A stretch of DNA of 45,263 nt, taken from NCBI GenBank assembly GCA_041302485.1, contig JBFYRA010000030.1, positions 1 to 45,263 on the forward strand, in the 5' to 3' direction. The DNA comes from Candidatus Bipolaricaulota bacterium (GTDB taxonomy: Bacteria; Bipolaricaulota; Bipolaricaulia; UBA7950; UBA9294). Below, piece by piece: positions 24,087 to 37,153 of the stretch (the stretch's first letter is position 1; each line of letters starts with the position of its first letter). A program made the position numbers and the translations under genes. The notes below the pieces were generated by a model. That model saw only the letters and a list, made by a program, of their open reading frames with translations. It was not told the origin of the DNA and did not search any database.

Positions 24087-25208
24087 TCACACGAAGGGTT
24101 CCGGGTGAAGTCTACGAGCTAGGTTTCGCCCTTTCCAGCAGGCCTCCGCCGCGAGGTACAGGCCGCCGCTCACGAGGCTGTGTCCGCCCAAGACGACCGG
24201 AACCTTGGCGCGGAGCGCCGCCTCGGTGAACGTTCGCCAGTGGCGGTCGTCGATCTGGTCGACGCGGAAGAGATCGCTGGAGAATCGCGCGCGCGGAGAA
24301 GGAATGTCGTCAGCTGCTCCAAGCAGCGGGCGAGAGTCGATCCATGCCGCGTCGCACGATCTCGCGAGCCGATCGAAGAACGCCTCGGCGCCGTCGTCGG
24401 CGACGACCTGGCGCAGCCAGGGAACATGGCGGCCGGCTCCCGCTCGCATTCCGCGTCCCTCGACGAGAGCGCTCGTACGGCAAGCGACTTGGGTCTCGAC
24501 GTGGCTCCATGTGACCGGACTCAGGCGCCCGACAAGGCACGCGACCGCGGAACGCTCCGTGAAGACGGCGAGAGCGCGATCGAGGGTCGGGTGACGCCGA
24601 TCCATTGCGCGGAAGAACTCGTGCAGTTCCGGTATGCCATGGTCGCTGCGTTCGAGGAGCAAGAGGTCCGTCGGCGTGTCGATGTCGAATTGCGTCGCGG
24701 CGCTGCGAGGGAGCGCGAGGCAAGAGTATCCGGCGTCGGCCAGCACGAACCCGAGAGGGTTGTCGAGCTCGGGGAGGTCGACGGCGAGAAGCTCCTGGGC
24801 GCCTGCGATCGCGCAAAAATCGCACGAGTAGAAGTTGTTGAATAGAGCACGAGGAGCCGGGCCGTGCGCGAAGTCAACAAGTTGCGCGAGGCCGTCATTC
24901 GGCAACAGACAGCCGGATCCGCTGCCGAAGTACACGACGCCGTCGGGGCCGAGCCGCCGGATGAGGTCTTGAAACACGTGTCCGAAGCGAAAGGGCTCCG
25001 AGCCGCCAGAGGTGACGAATTCGACCTCGCCGGGAGCGCCCGGACAGCGCGCAGGATCCGGCGTCACGACGCAGAGCGCGTCAAGCCCGACTGCGGACAG
25101 CCGCTCCAGCAAGCTGAGAGTTGCCGCCCACCGGCCTCGTTCGACGAGTTGCTCCTCGTCACTCGGGCCGAGCGCGGCGTGAAAGACGAGTCCTACGATC
25201 CGCTTCAT
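24087..25208 (-). CDS. Hypothetical protein, N-terminal MobA/CofC-like nucleotidyltransferase fold suspected (373 aa)
   Basis: GGAGGAGCCG-ATG start. MKRIVGLVF..., FGSGSGCLLP and FDIDTPTDLLLL resemble NTP-transferase-fold proteins. The stop lies 14 nt before the SHMT-GcvT start. Confidence 0.55.
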   Translation of the reverse strand: MKRIVGLVFHAALGPSDEEQLVERGRWAATLSLLERLSAVGLDALCVVTPDPARCPGAPGEVEFVTSGGSEPFRFGHVFQDLIRRLGPDGVVYFGSGSGCLLPNDGLAQLVDFAHGPAPRALFNNFYSCDFCAIAGAQELLAVDLPELDNPLGFVLADAGYSCLALPRSAATQFDIDTPTDLLLLERSDHGIPELHEFFRAMDRRHPTLDRALAVFTERSAVACLVGRLSPVTWSHVETQVACRTSALVEGRGMRAGAGRHVPWLRQVVADDGAEAFFDRLARSCDAAWIDSRPLLGAADDIPSPRARFSSDLFRVDQIDDRHWRTFTEAALRAKVPVVLGGHSLVSGGLYLAAEACWKGRNLARRLHPEPFV

Positions 25209-25371
25209 CGGCTCCTCCGAACCTGTTTCCGGACGTTGCTGCATCGACCGGTCCGGACTCCGCGTCTCGGCGAGGCCACGAAACGCAAAACGGCCTCCTC
25301 GATCCCACCTGATGGATCGAGGAGGCCGGCCCCTCCTCTCGAGCGAGGAAGGCACGTTGCGTCGATAGCGG

Positions 25372-25611: not shown

Positions 25612-26037
25612 CTAGAAAGGGACCTCCTCCTCTGGGAGTGGACTTTCATCGCCCGGAGGAGCAGCCTCCGGGGTTCCAGCGGGTTCTTCCGCCGCCCTCT
25701 GGGGTCCGCCCCCGAGGAACTGCACGCTCAACGCCACAACCTCCGTCACGCGGACCTTCTCTCCGTCGGCGTTCGCGAACGAGTCGATGCGCAGACGGCC
25801 CTCCACGGCGATCGATCGCCCCTTGCGAAGGTAGTTGGCGCAATTCTCCGCTTGCGTGCCCCAAACAACGATCGGCACGAACGTGACTTCTTCCTGGAAC
25901 TTCCCCGAGGCATCCTTGAACTGGCGGTTGACGGCGATCGAGAAGCGGACGCGCGCCGTCCCGCCCGGCGTGTACCGAAGCTCAGGGTCGGCTGTGAGAT
26001 TCCCGATCAGGATGACGCGGTTCAGGCTCGCAGACAT
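25612..26037 (-). CDS. ssb: Single-stranded DNA-binding protein
   Basis: SLNRVILIGNLTADPELRYTPGG OB-fold opening, and an acidic C-terminal tip ...PLPEEEVPF. Confidence 0.95.
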   Translation of the reverse strand: MSASLNRVILIGNLTADPELRYTPGGTARVRFSIAVNRQFKDASGKFQEEVTFVPIVVWGTQAENCANYLRKGRSIAVEGRLRIDSFANADGEKVRVTEVVALSVQFLGGGPQRAAEEPAGTPEAAPPGDESPLPEEEVPF

Positions 26038-26043
26038 GGTCTC

Positions 26044-26331
26044 CTACGACTCCCGCACGACGATCTGGTACCGCAAGAGCTCTTCATCTAGGTTGAGACG
26101 TGCCTCCACGAGGCTCACGGAGCTCGGAGGCATGCGGAACTCAGTGAAGCGGTAGTACCCTTCGGTGAAGTGCCGGATCTCGTACGCGAGAACGCGCTTT
26201 CCCCAGTCTTCCACCTTGCCGATCTCGCCGCCGTTCTCCGTGACAAGCGAGTGGACCCGCTCGACCTTGGCAACCCGTGCCTCGTCGGAAAGGTCTGGAC
26301 GAATCACATACACAATCTCGTAGTCTCGCAC
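26044..26331 (-). CDS. rpsF: 30S ribosomal protein S6 (95 aa)
   Basis: GTG at 26331 lies 7 nt after GAGAGG and gives (M)RDYEIVYVIRPDLSDE..., the canonical S6 N-terminus. The listed TTG at 26346 is probably too far upstream. Confidence 0.9.
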   Translation of the reverse strand: MRDYEIVYVIRPDLSDEARVAKVERVHSLVTENGGEIGKVEDWGKRVLAYEIRHFTEGYYRFTEFRMPPSSVSLVEARLNLDEELLRYQIVVRES

Positions 26332-26360
26332 TCTGGCACCTCTCAATCGATCGTCCGTAG

Positions 26361-26389
26361 AGGGTATCCGTGGCCCCTTGCGAAGTCAA
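26361..26389 (-). promoter_or_regulatory. Sigma70-like promoter of the rpsF-ssb-rpsR operon
   Basis: On the minus strand it reads TTGACT-N17-TACCCT. It shares TTGACTTCGCAAG with the EF-G promoter candidate. Confidence 0.4.
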
Positions 26390-26581
26390 ACCTCAGGCGC
26401 GGCGGGCCTTGCGGCCCCCTGAAGATGGAATGGCGGCAGGAACCGAAGCGCGCGTCCTTGAAAAGCGGAGGTTTGGCGCGTATGTATGATGCAAGTTTGA
26501 TGGAGGAATGGTGGAGGGGGTATTCTGGCGAAGCCCGAGACAACGCTCGGAGACAGTTCGCAAGCACGGAGGAGGTAGTCC

Positions 26582-26719
26582 ATGAAGTGGGGCGGATTCA
26601 ATCGCGAAGGAGAGAAGAAGATGAAGAAGCTGTTCAGTGGGAAGGCGCTTACGGTGTTGTTGGCGATCGCGGCGCTCGGACTCTTGATGAGCGAGACGTT
26701 GAAGTGGAGACCGTTCTAG
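26582..26719 (+). CDS. 45-aa peptide, copy 1 of 3 (hydrophobic core, C-terminal ETLKWRPF)
   Basis: MKWGGFNREGEKKMKKLFSGKALTVLLAIAALGLLMSETLKWRPF*. GGAGGAGG lies upstream. An internal ATG at 26621 has its own GGAGAG site. The ORF is below the track cutoff. Confidence 0.7.
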   Translation: MKWGGFNREGEKKMKKLFSGKALTVLLAIAALGLLMSETLKWRPF

Positions 26720-26742
26720 TCGAGCGGCAAGGAGCGAATTCC

Positions 26743-26880
26743 ATGAAGTGGGGCGGGTTCAATCGCGAAGGGGAGAAGAAGATGAAGAAGCTGTTCAGCG
26801 GGAAGGCACTTACGGTGTTGTTGGCGATCGCGGCGCTGGGGCTGCTGATGAGCGAGACGTTGAAGTGGAGACCGTTCTAG
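26743..26880 (+). CDS. 45-aa peptide, copy 2 of 3
   Basis: Identical protein to copy 1. AAGGAG lies 8 nt before the ATG. Copy 2 differs from copy 1 at 8 sites and from copy 3 at 4 sites, all synonymous. Confidence 0.7.
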   Translation: MKWGGFNREGEKKMKKLFSGKALTVLLAIAALGLLMSETLKWRPF

Positions 26881-26903
26881 TCGAGCGGCAAGGAGCGAAT
26901 TCC

Positions 26904-27041
26904 ATGAAGTGGGGCGGATTCAATCGCGAAGGGGAGAAGAAGATGAAGAAGCTGTTCAGCGGGAAGGCGCTTACGGTGTTGTTGGCGATCGCGGCGCTGG
27001 GGCTGTTGATGAGCGAGACGTTGAAGTGGAGGCCGTTCTAG
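26904..27041 (+). CDS. 45-aa peptide, copy 3 of 3
   Basis: Identical protein to copies 1 and 2, with the same 23-nt spacer TCGAGCGGCAAGGAGCGAATTCC upstream. Confidence 0.7.
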   Translation: MKWGGFNREGEKKMKKLFSGKALTVLLAIAALGLLMSETLKWRPF

Positions 27042-27135
27042 TCTGGATCGGCAGTTCGCTGGGCGGGCGTACGGAGTTCTAGTAAGATCCGGGTGACGCG
27101 CGGGATGAGCACAACGGCGACGGCCAGGAGGGTTC

Positions 27136-28443
27136 ATGCAGCTCCCGTTTCGGGCTATGGCTTTTGTAGTCTCACTGGCCCTCCTTGCGCTGGCGTCCCT
27201 GGGCTGGGGAGCGGCGCACCTCCATGCGCCGACAACCGCTGATCTCGTCTTATTCTTCGTCTTCGCAGCCCTGGCGGTGTTCGCCGAGGTCTACGCGACG
27301 TGGATCCCCGCCTACAAGTGGGAGATCTCGAGTTCGATCGCGATCTACCTCGCAGGGCTGTTCATCCTCGGCCCCGATCTGGTTCTTCCGCTCGTCTTCT
27401 TTTCTTCTGTCGTCTCGGAGCTCCTCCTGCGCTGGGGCGCGCGACGTGACACGTGGGCGACGGCCCTCGTACCGATCATATTCAATGTCGGGCAAGCAGT
27501 TGTTGCTGTCACCTGTGCCGGCATTCTCTTGCGCGTGCTCGGCTATGCGACGATCGAGATGCGCGAGGCGAGAGACTTCGCCGTGGCGGTCGGCGCTTTT
27601 CTCGTCTATTTCGCGCTCAACGTGTCCCTTGTGGTCGGGATCATCTCCGCCACCCAGCCGCGCCGGTTCTGGCACCTTCTGTTCGAGAACCTGCGCGCTT
27701 TCTTCGTCCAGTACGCCGTCCTGTGTGTCTCCGCGATCCTTCTTGCCGTCCTGCGTTCGATCTCGATGTGGCACGTCTTTCTCGCCCTCTTCCCTCTGAC
27801 GCTCGTTCACATCTCGTTCCGCAGCTACCTCAAATTGCAGACGCAAGCGCGCAGCACGTTCGAGAGGATGTCGCAGCTGCTCGACGCCCGCGATCACTAC
27901 ACGGCCGTCCACTCGAGCGAGGTCGCAGATCTGGCTCTGGCGGTCGGCCGGGAGATGGGCATGCCGCAGAGCGACCTCGAGCAGATCGACATTGCGGCCC
28001 GCGTGCACGACATCGGCAAAGTCGCGATCCCGGACAAGATCCTTCTCAAGCCCGGCCCGCTCGACGACGCGGAGTGGAAGATCATGAAGACGCACCCCGT
28101 GGTCAGCGCGCAGTTGATCGAAGGGCTCGAGATCTACTCCTCGGTTGCCGAGGCCGTGCGGCATGAGCACGAGCGGTGGGACGGGTCAGGCTACCCCGAC
28201 GGACTGAAGGGCGAGGAAATCCCGCTTATCGCGCGAATCATTGCGACGGCCGACATCTACAACGCGCTGTCGACCGATCGGCCGTACCGGAAGGCCTTCT
28301 CACACGAGGAAACAACTCGCATGATCCGCGAGATGCGGGGAGCGGACATCGATCCGCGGCTGGCGGACGCTCTGCTGCGAGTCATCGACCGACGAGCAGC
28401 CGAGCGTGCCGCGCCCCCTCAATCCGCGGAAGCCCAAGGATGA
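27136..28443 (+). CDS. Multi-TM sensor with cytoplasmic HD-GYP domain (c-di-GMP phosphodiesterase family), 435 aa
   Basis: AGGAGGGTTC-ATG start. The N-terminal ~230 aa is polytopic. HDIGK and [12 protein letters not shown] motifs are present. Confidence 0.9.
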
Positions 28444-34683: not shown

Positions 34684-35727
34684 GTGCACACGGCTGCGGA
34701 GCAGAGGCGCTACCGGTTCGGTGTCCGTGACATCGTTCTCATCGCGCTCTTCTCCGCGGCCGGTGGCGTCCTCTCGACCTACATCGGGTACCTCGGAAAC
34801 CTCGTCAACCGTCTGTTTGGAGTGCCGTTCGGTGCCGGACAACTCATCTCCGGCCTGCACATCGTTTGGCCCCTCTTGGCGCGCGCCCTCGTCGGGCGGT
34901 TCGGCTCGGGGACGCTGACGGGACTCACCAAGGGTGTCGTCGAGCTGTTCAGCGGGGGAACGCACGGCGTCGTCATCGTCCTTGTCTCGGGGATCGAAGG
35001 CCTGTTCGTCGACTTCTGTCTCGGCCTCTCGCGCCGACGCTCTCTCGCGCTCACGATGACGGCCGGAGCATTGGCCAGCGCCTCCAACGTCGTCGTGTTC
35101 CAGGCGATCTACTTCTCCGGCGTGCCAGCCGGCTTCTTCGCGGTGATGATCGGGCTTGCGCTCGTCTCCGGCGCTGCGTTTGGCGGCTACCTCGCGTGGG
35201 ACATCGAACGGCTCCTCGTCTCCGCTCACGTCGTGCGGCCGCCCGAAGCCGCGTCCGCGCCGCGGCCGACCTCTCCCTGGCGTCGGGTCGCCATCCTGGC
35301 GATCGTGTTCGCGTTCCTTGCGGGCGCCGTCTACTACGCGATCGGGATCCTCCGTCCGTTTGCCACGCCCGGGACGGCGTCCGTCGGTGGCTCCGTCGAT
35401 GCGCCCTACACGTTCGTCTACTCCGACTTGGCGACCGAGGAACGCACCGTGCATGCCGAGTTGCGCGGCAGCGCAACCTACGTTCCCCCCGCCGACTACA
35501 CCGGGATTCCCCTCAGCATCATCCTCGCGCGCGCCGCGCCGGCCCCGGCGGCGACGAGAGCGCGCATCATCGCGAGCGACGGCTACGAAGCCTCGCTCGC
35601 TCTGGCGGATATCGCCGGCAGAGCAGACATCGTCCTCGAGCGGGTTGGCGACTCCTTGCGCCTGGTCGCCCCGGGCTACGATGGCGCCTTCTGGGTTGCG
35701 CAGGTGGTGCGATTTGTCGTCGAATAG
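34684..35727 (+). CDS. ECF-transporter S-component-like membrane domain fused to a C-terminal extracytoplasmic Oxidored_molyb-like module (347 aa)
   Basis: The N-terminal ~190 aa has about 6 TM helices (VRDIVLIALFSAAGGVLSTYIG...). An extra TM helix (WRRVAILAIVFAFLAGAVYYAIGIL) follows. The C-terminal module is ADYTGIPLSIILARA...IIASDGYEASL...GAFWVAQVVRFVVE. Confidence 0.65.
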   Translation: MHTAAEQRRYRFGVRDIVLIALFSAAGGVLSTYIGYLGNLVNRLFGVPFGAGQLISGLHIVWPLLARALVGRFGSGTLTGLTKGVVELFSGGTHGVVIVLVSGIEGLFVDFCLGLSRRRSLALTMTAGALASASNVVVFQAIYFSGVPAGFFAVMIGLALVSGAAFGGYLAWDIERLLVSAHVVRPPEAASAPRPTSPWRRVAILAIVFAFLAGAVYYAIGILRPFATPGTASVGGSVDAPYTFVYSDLATEERTVHAELRGSATYVPPADYTGIPLSIILARAAPAPAATRARIIASDGYEASLALADIAGRADIVLERVGDSLRLVAPGYDGAFWVAQVVRFVVE

Positions 35728-37153
35728 CCGATTGGATGTCGAGTTCCGCGACCTCACGGTCCGCTATGCGGATCGCGAGATCGATGCGCTCTCGGCGGTG
35801 AGCGAGCGCATTGCCGACGGCGATGTCGTGGCGGTCGCCGGACCTTCCGGGTGTGGGAAGACGACGCTGTGCCGCACGCTGGCCGGGTTCGTCCCGACGA
35901 TGATTCCCGCACGGGTCTCCGGAGATGTTTTCGTGGGCGGCGAACGGACGCTCGGCGTGCCTCCAGAGTCCCTGGCGACACGGATCGGACTCGTCCAGCA
36001 GGACCCCGATGCTCAGGTCTGCACGCTCCGCGTCGGGCAGGAGGTGGCCTTCGGCCCCGAGAACCTCTGTCTTCCCGTTGAGGAGGTTCGTGCCCGCGTT
36101 GAGCGATCGCTCGATGCCGTCGGAATCGCGGCGCTCCGCGATCGGACGACCGCGACGCTGTCCGGCGGCGAGAAGCAGCGCCTCGCCATTGCATCGATCC
36201 TGGCGATGGAGCCTCGTCTTCTGCTCCTCGACGAGCCGACAGCGAACCTCGATCCACGCGGGGTCCGCAGTCTGTTCGCACTCTTGTCAGAACAGAACAG
36301 GGAGCGACAGAGGACGCTCGTGATCGTCGAGCACCGCATCGACGCGCTGCGCGTTCTTGCGCCGCGCCTGATCCTTCTCGACCGCGGCCGATTGGTGGAT
36401 CGGTACCCGGCGCGCGAGCGCCTCGACTACGCTCGTCTCGGACTTCGCGGCGATTGGGCGGTGGAGCCGTCGGGAGCGGCAGGGAGCGCGGATCTCGTCA
36501 GCGTGAGAGACGTCTCGTTCGGCTACGCGGGGCCGCTCTTGCGCGACCTCTCGCTCTCCCTTCGTGCCGGACAGGTGCTGGCGATCATCGGGCCGAACGG
36601 CGGAGGGAAGACGACATTTCTCCGGCTCGTGGCCGGGCTGGAGGTGCCGCAGTCGGGCAGGATCGACCGCGCGCGCGGGACCGAGATCGGCTTCGTCTTC
36701 CAGCATCCGCACCATCAGATCTTCGAGCGTACCGTGCGCCGGGAGATGGAACTCGAGCACCCCGGGCCGCCAAGCTCCATCGGCGAAGAGTTGCGCGCGG
36801 CTCGGCTCGGCGAGCTGGAGAGCGCAGCGCCGCTGTCGCTGAGTCTCGGCGAGCAGCGCCGCCTCACGGTCGCCACGACGCTCGCCCGTCGGCCGAACGT
36901 GCTCTTGCTCGACGAGCCGTTTATCGGGCAAGACCGGCGCAATGTCCTATGGATGATCGAACGAATCCGCGACGTTGCGGGCGGCGGAGGCGCCGTGGCG
37001 CTCGTCACGCACGACATACCGCTTGCGCGAGCTCTGGCCGACAGGGTCCTGTACCTCGAGGGGGACACGGCGTGGATAGGTCCTCCCGACGAGGTTTTCG
37101 CGCGGCTGCGTGAGCGCGGGGACATCGATTTCACGCCGGAGGCGTGGACATGA
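35714..37153 (+). CDS. Duplicated ABC ATPase of ECF transporters (EcfA-EcfA' fusion, CbiO-like)
   Basis: There are two complete ABC cassettes: GPSGCGKTT / LSGGEKQR / LLLDEPT, and GPNGGGKTT / LSLGEQRR / LLLDEPF. The start is uncertain. TTG at 35714 lies 6 nt after AGGTGG. Alternatives are TTG at 35732 and 35696. Confidence 0.85.
   Translation: MSSNSRLDVEFRDLTVRYADREIDALSAVSERIADGDVVAVAGPSGCGKTTLCRTLAGFVPTMIPARVSGDVFVGGERTLGVPPESLATRIGLVQQDPDAQVCTLRVGQEVAFGPENLCLPVEEVRARVERSLDAVGIAALRDRTTATLSGGEKQRLAIASILAMEPRLLLLDEPTANLDPRGVRSLFALLSEQNRERQRTLVIVEHRIDALRVLAPRLILLDRGRLVDRYPARERLDYARLGLRGDWAVEPSGAAGSADLVSVRDVSFGYAGPLLRDLSLSLRAGQVLAIIGPNGGGKTTFLRLVAGLEVPQSGRIDRARGTEIGFVFQHPHHQIFERTVRREMELEHPGPPSSIGEELRAARLGELESAAPLSLSLGEQRRLTVATTLARRPNVLLLDEPFIGQDRRNVLWMIERIRDVAGGGGAVALVTHDIPLARALADRVLYLEGDTAWIGPPDEVFARLRERGDIDFTPEAWT

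Follow-up and report, generated by a model that had tools for sequence, protein, structure and literature searches.

Tandem peptide genes beside a membrane HD-GYP gene in the Bipolaricaulota: a candidate peptide input to c-di-GMP signalling

Background

Small proteins are systematically missed by genome annotation, and the ligand question is open for most transmembrane HD-GYP enzymes. Both matters arise in a 45,263-nt stretch of a contig of an uncultured Candidatus Bipolaricaulota bacterium (JBFYRA010000030.1, assembly GCA_041302485.1; "the window" refers to this whole stretch), in which three tandem copies of a gene for a 45-amino-acid (aa) peptide lie directly upstream of a gene for a membrane protein with an HD-GYP domain. 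What is a peptide that is encoded three times over doing in front of a cyclic di-GMP (c-di-GMP) enzyme? An earlier reading of this DNA from its letters alone (the sequence-only reading) had pointed out the three copies, taken them for translated genes under purifying selection and raised several options for the product, from a secreted signal to a bacteriocin-type precursor. Here we examine the substitutions among the copies, the distribution of the peptide, its gene neighbourhoods and the parts of the peptide on which selection falls, and weigh the explanations that these results allow.

Results

Tandem Repeats Finder reported one array in this region (26579–27043; period 161, 2.9 copies, 96% matches, zero indels), and ORF translation confirmed exactly the three protein-identical copies of a 161-bp unit described by the sequence-only reading (Table 1). 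Each open reading frame (ORF) is 138 nt long, and the common product of all three is MKWGGFNREGEKKMKKLFSGKALTVLLAIAALGLLMSETLKWRPF. Both 23-nt spacers between the copies read TCGAGCGGCAAGGAGCGAATTCC, with AAGGAG 8 nt ahead of the ATG; the 23 nt preceding copy 1 are unlike the spacers, yet carry a Shine-Dalgarno (SD) sequence of their own, GGAGGAGG. A base-by-base comparison returned the same nine variable nucleotide positions that had been listed by eye, in codons 5, 10, 19, 22, 32, 33, 34, 35 and 43, and all nine are synonymous, eight of them at third positions and one at the first position of a Leu codon (TTG/CTG). Because only 20–28% of random substitutions in this ORF would be expected to be synonymous, nine out of nine has P = 6e-7 to 1e-5, varying with the transition bias. 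Three additional variable sites found in other assemblies of the same species are also synonymous without exception. Pairwise proportions of synonymous differences (pS) among the window copies are 0.14–0.28 with no non-synonymous differences (pN = 0), so the duplication is not very recent. Gene calls for the identical peptide are present on 11 public contigs of this species, and the GC content at third codon positions is 0.83 in the peptide genes and 0.80 in the adjoining HD-GYP gene.

The array could also be a repeat that codes for nothing, or a series of regulatory upstream ORFs in which the amino-acid sequence does not matter; its position in the 5' region of an operon would suit either. 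The substitution pattern effectively refutes this, however, and peptides from different species are 59–100% identical in amino acids whereas their nucleotides diverge. An Rfam search of 26000–27400 gave zero matches at E ≤ 1, and the non-coding explanation appears hardly tenable. That the three genes are coding and under purifying selection, rather than a recent duplication, is strongly supported by the window copies together with about 130 related loci.

These loci were gathered from several sources. No Pfam (E ≤ 0.01), NCBIfam (E ≤ 1), PHROG or PADLOC model matched the peptide. A word-indexed search of 5.8 billion proteins returned 20 homologs of 44–71 aa at 59–100% identity, the best label on any of them being "hypothetical protein", and a profile search that covered 1.84 billion cluster representatives in full produced no more than 24 clusters at E ≤ 1e-3, with lengths of 34–80 aa. 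A scan of one genome per GTDB species yielded 29 loci, the majority titled Candidatus Bipolaricaulota, Bipolaricaulia or Bipolaricaulis and the remainder coming from "uncultured bacterium" bins or carrying the depositor labels Thermotogae, Thermotogota or Atribacteria; a metagenome scan added 80 further loci. The search of genomes and metagenomes that the sequence-only reading had proposed has thus produced an HD-GYP-linked family with arrays of 1–6 copies and 172 distinct peptide sequences. In profile-derived alignments K41 and W42 are invariant and M1, K2, L26 and P44 almost invariant; MKWGG, G10, L17, G20 and A30 are also invariant within the closer half of the family. K-W is followed by small residues at both ends of the peptide (residues 2–5 and 41–45), as MKWGG and, in many relatives, among them those of L020, L022 and L132, as KWRPGG(R). 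Properly spaced SDs precede all copies in all species, and spacers across the family measure 15–45 nt. We regard the peptides as a real, conserved and undescribed small-protein family of the phylum Bipolaricaulota. Our literature search found no description of the family or of DUF5317, whose gene lies nearby, and nothing that ties small proteins or peptide signals of Bipolaricaulota/Acetothermia to HD-GYP.

The window has the order rpsR-ssb-rpsF (minus strand), peptide array, HD-GYP gene with eight transmembrane (TM) helices, DUF5317 gene and ADP-forming acetyl-CoA synthetase (ACS), and the same order, with the array between rpsF and the HD-GYP gene, was found in 29/29 species-representative loci. 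Among the metagenome loci, HD-GYP is the next gene in 49/49 with at least 700 nt downstream, rpsF lies upstream in 50/50 with at least 900 nt upstream, and DUF5317 follows in 30/30 with sufficient downstream DNA. Since the main clade is broadly syntenic, the divergent contexts are the informative cases. In L045–47, five 48-aa copies stand directly ahead of an HD-GYP gene that is 57% identical to that of the window, flanked by acetyltransferase, PNP_UDP_1 and methyltransferase genes and with no rpsF, DUF5317 or ACS. In L041 the upstream side has gained an HU gene and DUF5317 is replaced by an MFS transporter gene, and the array still precedes the sensor gene. The peptide genes of L049–51 have ABC permeases upstream; the truncated gene downstream in L049 gave no BLASTP match to the sensor, and its in-register match to the sensor TM-domain profile (15 bits, with high compositional bias) is suggestive only. 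When loci were looked up from the sensor instead, arrays were present in 3/3 contigs with enough upstream DNA, a count that excludes L135 and L136, whose contigs start too close to the sensor gene. The linkage of the array to the sensor gene is strict. As it is kept across divergent flanks and in the look-ups from the sensor, the constant partner is the sensor and not DUF5317 or rpsF. Of the two co-occurrences that had been suggested for checking, that with HD-GYP therefore holds, in loci without rpsF and DUF5317 as well, while DUF5317 is missing at some array loci and is dispensable.

This bears on whether the peptide could be an abundant small membrane or envelope protein with no relation to c-di-GMP, placed beside the sensor by conserved gene order or shared expression signals. 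The extended synteny from rpsR-ssb-rpsF to ACS in most loci fits such a role, as do the terminators that part the array from the sensor gene in some lineages, and tandem amplification is typical of high-abundance structural proteins, with gvpA as an example. The adjacency to the sensor nevertheless persists when all other neighbours change, and look-ups that begin from the sensor recover arrays, which makes an unrelated role quite unlikely.

One locus stands apart. At L015:2965–3102 one copy stands alone, with the decayed start of a second behind it (GCGAAGCAGGG where ATGAAGTGGGG would be expected), in an unrelated context after a 327-aa minus-strand ORF and with neither rpsF nor HD-GYP on the 3.6-kb contig. 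It may be a relocated orphan or a chimera of the co-assembled bin.

To describe where selection falls along the peptide, three regions were set by the K-W anchor: the head (to K21 in the window peptide), a 16-residue hydrophobic segment, and a tail running from three residues ahead of K-W through the C-terminal end. Nei-Gojobori counts were pooled over all within-array pairs from 19 non-redundant loci, and because the pairs are non-independent the resulting ratios are descriptive figures and not formal tests. Head and hydrophobic segment both have a pN/pS of 0.30 (222.7 synonymous and 268.2 non-synonymous differences for the head, 282.5 and 203.5 for the segment), and the tail has 0.019 (145 synonymous and 10 non-synonymous differences), a large contrast even so. 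In the five copies of L036, for example, the heads are strongly diverged and LGLLLGASVKWHG is retained through synonymous changes. Across 67 distinct multi-copy arrays, the tails are all identical in 49, the hydrophobic segments in 25 and the heads in 10. Meanwhile, 103 arrays contain 70 distinct tails, among them ETLKWRPF, ESIKWRPGGR, ENFKWHPG, ASVKWHG, QSIKWSP and ASAKWNP. Selection is concentrated on the tail, which is near-uniform within a genome and differs between genomes.

The peptide has the charged head, hydrophobic core and short polar tail that the sequence-only reading described. Its four parts are a basic head MKWGGFNREGEKKMKKLFSGK, a hydrophobic segment of 15–16 residues, a small-residue junction (S37 in the window peptide; A, G or S in relatives) and the 8-residue tail ETLKWRPF. 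The head carries seven Lys/Arg against two Glu and the tail is nearly neutral, a difference in charge which, by the positive-inside rule, suggests an N-in/C-out topology. A Sec-type layout, with a basic n-region MKKLFSGK followed by the hydrophobic stretch ALTVLLAIAALGLLM, is present in the window peptide and likewise in the 172 unique members. The uncharged stretch (15–16 residues in the peptide of the window, as many as 19 in relatives without Glu) falls between the length of a typical signal-peptide h-region and that of a TM helix. Overall, the peptide resembles either a signal peptide or an N-in single-span anchor, followed by an external tail of 7–13 residues. The residue preceding the tail is A, G or S in 164/172 peptides. 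A cut ahead of E38, which would release ETLKWRPF, would place this residue at -1 and Leu at -3, and a cut two residues later would place A/G/S at -3 and, in 58/172, Asn at -1; cleavage by signal peptidase I after the A/G/S residue would be compatible with these sequences.

An internal start at the MKK had also been proposed, and it is plausible. Stand-alone short forms of 32–35 aa, with a strong SD of their own and beginning exactly at the M14 position, occur in L041, L042 and L134, and consist of the basic n-region, the hydrophobic stretch and the tail, nothing more. In L133 a decayed long form provides, in its K-G-E codons, the SD of the short form. Among 157 long forms, 142 have ATG as codon 14. 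Gly10 is GGA in 100/157, which creates AAGGAG, and GGA makes up ~20% of the Gly codons in the neighbouring genes of the window; this preference is not decisive, because the codon preferences at G4 and G5 are equally strong. Given that the short forms begin at the M14 position, the MKWGG head seems dispensable for the core function.

These properties bear on a second alternative, in which the peptide is an obligate membrane-resident accessory subunit or regulator of the MgrB/SafA/KdpF kind, uncleaved and packed, as a structural or inhibitory partner, on the TM domain of the HD-GYP protein or on DUF5317, and not a signal. An N-in single span of 45 aa with a Trp in its external tail, as in MgrB, would fit, and so would the strict linkage to the sensor gene, the conservation of the MKWGG cytoplasmic head in long forms and the lack of an exporter or maturase nearby. 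The 19-residue uncharged span of members without Glu would be enough for a TM helix. A packed helix is, however, at odds with a hydrophobic segment that has no helical-face periodicity of conservation (permutation p = 0.82) and is as relaxed as the head among paralogs (pN/pS 0.30) while the tail is frozen. Two to six copies, strong SDs and terminators ahead of the sensor gene would imply a large excess, which is unusual for a stoichiometric subunit, and the natural short forms do without the head. We consider such a subunit unlikely, although it is the main rival. The peptide has no Pfam or NCBIfam match to the MgrB and KdpF small membrane proteins.

Small, hydrophobic, cationic and tandemly repeated peptides could also be membrane-active toxins, either of the type I toxin-antitoxin kind or like bacteriocins and phenol-soluble modulins (PSMs); the Ldr/Ibs/Hok loci and the psm-alpha operon contain small hydrophobic repeated peptide genes. 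Against a toxin stand the spacers of 15–45 nt, which leave no room for per-unit promoters or antitoxin RNAs, the strong exposed SDs, and vertical inheritance at one locus that is fixed across the phylum. There is no immunity or export gene and no PADLOC match, and the opposite-strand ORFs that run across the copy junctions have no conservation between units. The spacers and the fixed locus give type I toxin-antitoxin no support as a class, and toxins of either kind are very unlikely.

The remaining option raised by the sequence-only reading, precursors of ribosomally synthesised and post-translationally modified peptides (RiPPs), as with the multiple identical structural genes of thiocillin (tclE-H), found no support. 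Identical short precursors in several copies would be in keeping with it, and the invariant Lys-Trp pair recalls streptide-type RiPPs, in which Lys and Trp are cross-linked. Yet Pfam annotation of the neighbours in the window and in four divergent contexts revealed no radical-SAM, YcaO, lanthipeptide synthetase, peptidase-ABC exporter or other maturase. A conserved core with a relaxed leader is moreover the opposite of many multi-copy RiPP families, and the hydrophobic segment is more like a signal for the membrane or for secretion than like a recognition leader. We judge RiPP precursors to be highly improbable.

Three further classes of precursor likewise found no support. A double-glycine leader, as in ComC and class II bacteriocins, would have to use the sole GG at residues 4–5, and no peptidase-ABC exporter occurs in the contexts examined. 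For an AgrD-type precursor there is no conserved Cys, and DUF5317 has no AgrB Pfam match or PDB fold match. MKWGG/F is leader-like in the manner of type IV pilins or Flp, but 15 charged residues stand ahead of the hydrophobic segment and the short forms are without the motif.

The 435-aa protein encoded downstream of the array is, judged by its motifs, an HD-GYP c-di-GMP phosphodiesterase with both HD and GYP motifs intact. Its HD-GYP domain matches Pfam HD_5 (1.3e-38) and PDB 4mcw (6e-44), and the translation keeps HDIGK and GSGYP within the pattern HD...HHExxDGxGYP. The closest crystallised HD-GYP enzymes are 4mcw, 5z7c and 4r8z, and the fold matches found with Foldseek are 4mcw, 4r8z and 9rbz. 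Pfam offers no family for the N-terminal 235 residues, not even at E = 10. In the AlphaFold2 (AF2) model they form eight TM helices with a predicted local distance difference test (pLDDT) score mostly of 80–95; basic loops at 101–105 and 173–176 put both ends of the domain in the cytoplasm, and the external loops are short. A word-indexed search with the TM domain returned only Bipolaricaulota relatives and was saturated on hydrophobic words. Foldseek gave weak, non-significant likeness to RibU and ThiT (E 0.24–1.8), S-components of energy-coupling factor (ECF) transporters. A YkoE/YkoD-like ECF transporter module (ABC_cobalt and a double ABC ATPase) lies ~7.5 kb downstream of the sensor gene; the presence of an ECF-like TM domain near an ECF module may be coincidence.

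The DUF5317 gene overlaps both of its neighbours, the HD-GYP stop at its start (ATGA) and the ACS start at its end (by 17 nt), which suggests translational coupling of sensor, DUF5317 and acetyl-CoA synthetase. DUF5317 is present at most, not all, related loci. Its AF2 model has a pLDDT of 91.9, with invariant H63, N100, D146 and D164, and a Foldseek search of the PDB found no match (best E = 3.1). Invariant LGD and SxGD motifs prompted the idea of a GxGD or prepilin-type intramembrane peptidase that cuts MKWGG/F. The idea was rejected: the model has no PDB fold match and no similarity to FlaK or presenilin-type peptidases, and the gene is missing at some array loci. At L001:10233–12098, HD-GYP and DUF5317 are called as one 621-aa fusion; tblastn shows that the frame changes near residue 408, and an assembly indel is more probable than a real fusion.

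Copy numbers need some care. Of 29 doubly flanked metagenome arrays, 26 hold 2–6 copies (1 copy in 3 arrays, 2 in 13, 3 in 8, 4 in 2, 5 in 2 and 6 in 1). Many contigs stop within an array or carry runs of N there, so the repeat breaks short-read assemblies. Near-identical assemblies of the window's species have 1, 2, 3 or 4 copies, and in the one-copy versions the 5' part of copy 1 is joined to the 3' part of copy 3. Since assembly collapse and unequal crossing-over would both give such chimeras, the differences are not taken as established, and copy number from short-read assemblies is unreliable. Copy number, and even gene presence, are consequently under-reported in metagenome-assembled genomes of Bipolaricaulota. 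Genome-specific amino-acid substitutions are common to all copies within each genome, and pS is 0.03–0.29 within arrays compared with 0.24–0.56 between species (0.45–0.56 for the window against L011), pointing to concerted evolution or separate amplification in each lineage, followed by silent drift. A few degenerate or truncated copies in the relatives L028, L029, L037 and L022 indicate that birth and death of copies also occurs.

In an alignment of eight species, the intergenic region between rpsF and the array contains three conserved promoter-like blocks. Candidates were picked by this conservation and not by consensus: a consensus promoter scan of the region flagged none, missing TTGAAA-17-TATGTA as its -10 ends in A, and TTGATG-18-TATTCT, with 8/12 consensus matches, was under the scan threshold. 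The former had been proposed as a possible, weak promoter, and it does fall in a conserved block. The third block, TTGACT-17-TACCCT, is divergent from the other two and is probably the promoter of the rpsF-ssb-rpsR operon. The sequence-only reading had also seen no terminator before the HD-GYP gene and taken co-transcription to be plausible. The first part stands: a terminator scan of the gap between array and sensor gene found no site, and the one terminator-like site, at 27140–27156 within the beginning of the HD-GYP gene, does not exceed what shuffled sequence yields. Co-transcription is uncertain, given that the low-GC relatives L041 and L042 have a canonical terminator (hairpin and T-run) between array and HD-GYP gene; several other lineages have strong hairpins there. 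Within the gap of the window there is also GTAAGAT, a -10-like motif that the close clade conserves. In the terminator hairpin of L041 (L041:6283–6340) and L042, the loop contains TATGATAT or TATAAT, which may be a -10 element of the sensor gene embedded in the terminator. From these signals, it is likely that peptide mRNA is made in large amounts and that the sensor gene is served by partial read-through or by a weak promoter of its own.

Several other features of the window were recorded (Table 1). The fusion of serine hydroxymethyltransferase (SHMT) and glycine-cleavage T-protein (GCV_T) domains is also called in relatives (1063 aa) and is in two pieces in the probable long-read contig L001. 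The neighbouring ORF, of 373–422 aa in this and related loci, has no Pfam or NCBIfam family; it is 37–65% identical across the phylum and lies beside rpsR in most related loci and ~3 kb from it in several. A 1636-aa ORF whose sole recognisable domain is DUF11 is taken to be a surface protein.

Table 1 Coordinates of the features discussed, in window positions
Feature	Position	Strand	Basis or remark
SHMT-GCV_T fusion ORF, 1069 aa	20881-24090	-	
ORF without Pfam or NCBIfam family	24087-25355	-	
TTGACT-17-TACCCT	26361-26389	-	Conserved block just upstream of rpsF
Promoter-like TTGAAA-17-TATGTA	26458-26486	+	Sequence reading; most conserved block of the rpsF-array intergenic region, 8 species
Second promoter-like TTGATG-18-TATTCT	26497-26526	+	Conserved block in 8-species alignment; function inferred
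SD of copy 1	26568-26575	+	6 nt ahead of ATG at 26582
Peptide gene copy 1, 45 aa	26582-26719	+	ORF translation; public gene calls
Spacer 1, AAGGAG at 26729-26734	26720-26742	+	Identical to spacer 2
Peptide gene copy 2, 45 aa, identical product	26743-26880	+	ORF translation, substitution counts
Spacer 2, AAGGAG at 26890-26895	26881-26903	+	Identical to spacer 1
Peptide gene copy 3, 45 aa, identical product	26904-27041	+	ORF translation, substitution counts
Gap from array to HD-GYP gene, 94 nt	27042-27135	+	Minimum free energy -27.7 kcal/mol, modest structure; AGGAGG ahead of ATG
Membrane sensor: 8-TM N-terminal domain (aa 1-~235), HD-GYP domain (aa 245-409)	27136-28443	+	Pfam, PDB, AF2
DUF5317 membrane protein, 186 aa	28440-29000	+	Pfam PF17248, 2.9e-33
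YkoE/YkoD-like ECF module	34684-37153	+	
DUF11 ORF, 1636 aa	40186-45096	-	

Discussion

The array is a set of coding genes whose constant neighbour is a membrane HD-GYP sensor, and selection within arrays falls on the C-terminal tail. Strict linkage, tail-focused selection, tails that are uniform within and varied between genomes, and high gene dosage relative to the sensor together argue that the tail is recognised by a co-evolving partner, for which the sensor is the only constant candidate. We therefore put forward tentatively, at slightly short of an even chance, that the peptide tail, whether released or tethered, is a ligand or modulator of the adjacent HD-GYP sensor.

The proposed sequence of events would be as follows. 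Each unit would give a separately translated peptide that is exported or inserted in the membrane, with output amplified by the tandem arrangement. The tail ETLKWRPF would come to lie outside the cytoplasm, either freed when a signal-peptidase-type enzyme cuts after the small residue or kept tethered through the hydrophobic segment, and would act as the cognate ligand or modulator of the 8-TM sensor domain encoded immediately downstream. Peptide output, raised by gene dosage and strong SDs, would then set c-di-GMP hydrolysis, closing an autocrine or quorum-type loop like comC-comD or agrD-agrC with a second-messenger output. A narrower version, in which the enzyme is a peptide-gated c-di-GMP phosphodiesterase whose 8-TM domain senses a self-made extracellular peptide (ETLKWRPF, with lineage variants around K-W), is rather doubtful. 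If true, it would be a kinase-free quorum or autocrine circuit from peptide to second messenger in an uncultured, deep-branching phylum.

A number of observations weigh against the tail as ligand or modulator. Translation, topology, export, cleavage, interaction with the sensor and any effect on phosphodiesterase activity are inferred from sequence. Most loci are broadly syntenic, which leaves three or four divergent contexts as independent support for the linkage, and the pairs behind the pooled pN/pS counts are not independent of one another. Unlike strain-specific pheromones, the peptides have a K-W core that is invariant across the phylum, and the invariant MKWGG head of the long forms is unexpected for a plain signal-peptide n-region. 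Cleavage after A/G/S agrees with the -1/-3 rule only to the point of compatibility, with Leu at -3, and the alternative site has Asn at -1 in one third of the peptides. No dedicated exporter or protease is linked, and DUF5317, the other membrane protein of the locus, has no PDB fold match and is missing at some loci. The weak likeness of the TM domain to vitamin-binding ECF S-components would favour a small-molecule ligand. Finally, a comparison of tail variants with the sensor's external loops for covariation was uninformative, being confounded by phylogeny.

These results describe a peptide family that is conserved, amplified and very strongly selected across a candidate phylum and has no Pfam or NCBIfam model. 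Its fixed position before a membrane HD-GYP enzyme suggests, in concrete and testable form, what a transmembrane HD-GYP sensor might detect. Should the tail be a released signal, the locus would represent a peptide-to-c-di-GMP circuit of previously undescribed design.

Among known systems, the closest in arrangement are the Gram-positive pheromone cassettes comC-comD, agrD-agrC and blpC-blpH, in which a short precursor gene (~40–50 aa) immediately precedes, in the same orientation, the gene of a polytopic membrane receptor. They also share a signal part that is most constrained within a strain and varied between lineages, and they have an autoinduction loop like the one proposed here. The locus differs from them in having an HD-GYP c-di-GMP phosphodiesterase as output instead of a histidine kinase, in having no double-glycine leader, thiolactone Cys, ComAB or AgrB gene, and in its 1–6 tandem copies and phylum-wide K-W core; no sequence similarity was detected. 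The 32–35-aa forms share the layout of the Sec-exported Phr/Rap, PapR/PlcR and SHP/Rgg peptides, a signal peptide plus a few residues with the active part at the extreme C-terminus. Those peptides are re-imported and act on cytoplasmic RRNPP receptors, whereas here a membrane sensor is linked and there is no Opp or RRNPP gene.

MgrB-PhoQ, SafA-PhoQ and KdpF offer a likeness of another sort, with ~30–65 aa, an N-in single span, a short external tail and a polytopic sensor or enzyme as target. They are single-copy, and the MgrB and SafA genes are not adjacent to the sensor gene, unlike the array described here, in which selection acts on the tail rather than the helix. Head-to-tail copies that each have their own SD and encode a near-identical short product, read as dosage amplification, are known from thiocillin tclE-H, psm-alpha1-4 and gvpA, but the present locus has no maturases, amphipathic PSM helix or gas-vesicle genes. 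A small peptide gene beside a membrane sensor is thus of a known kind; what is new is the tandem amplification, the HD-GYP output and the phylum in which they are found.

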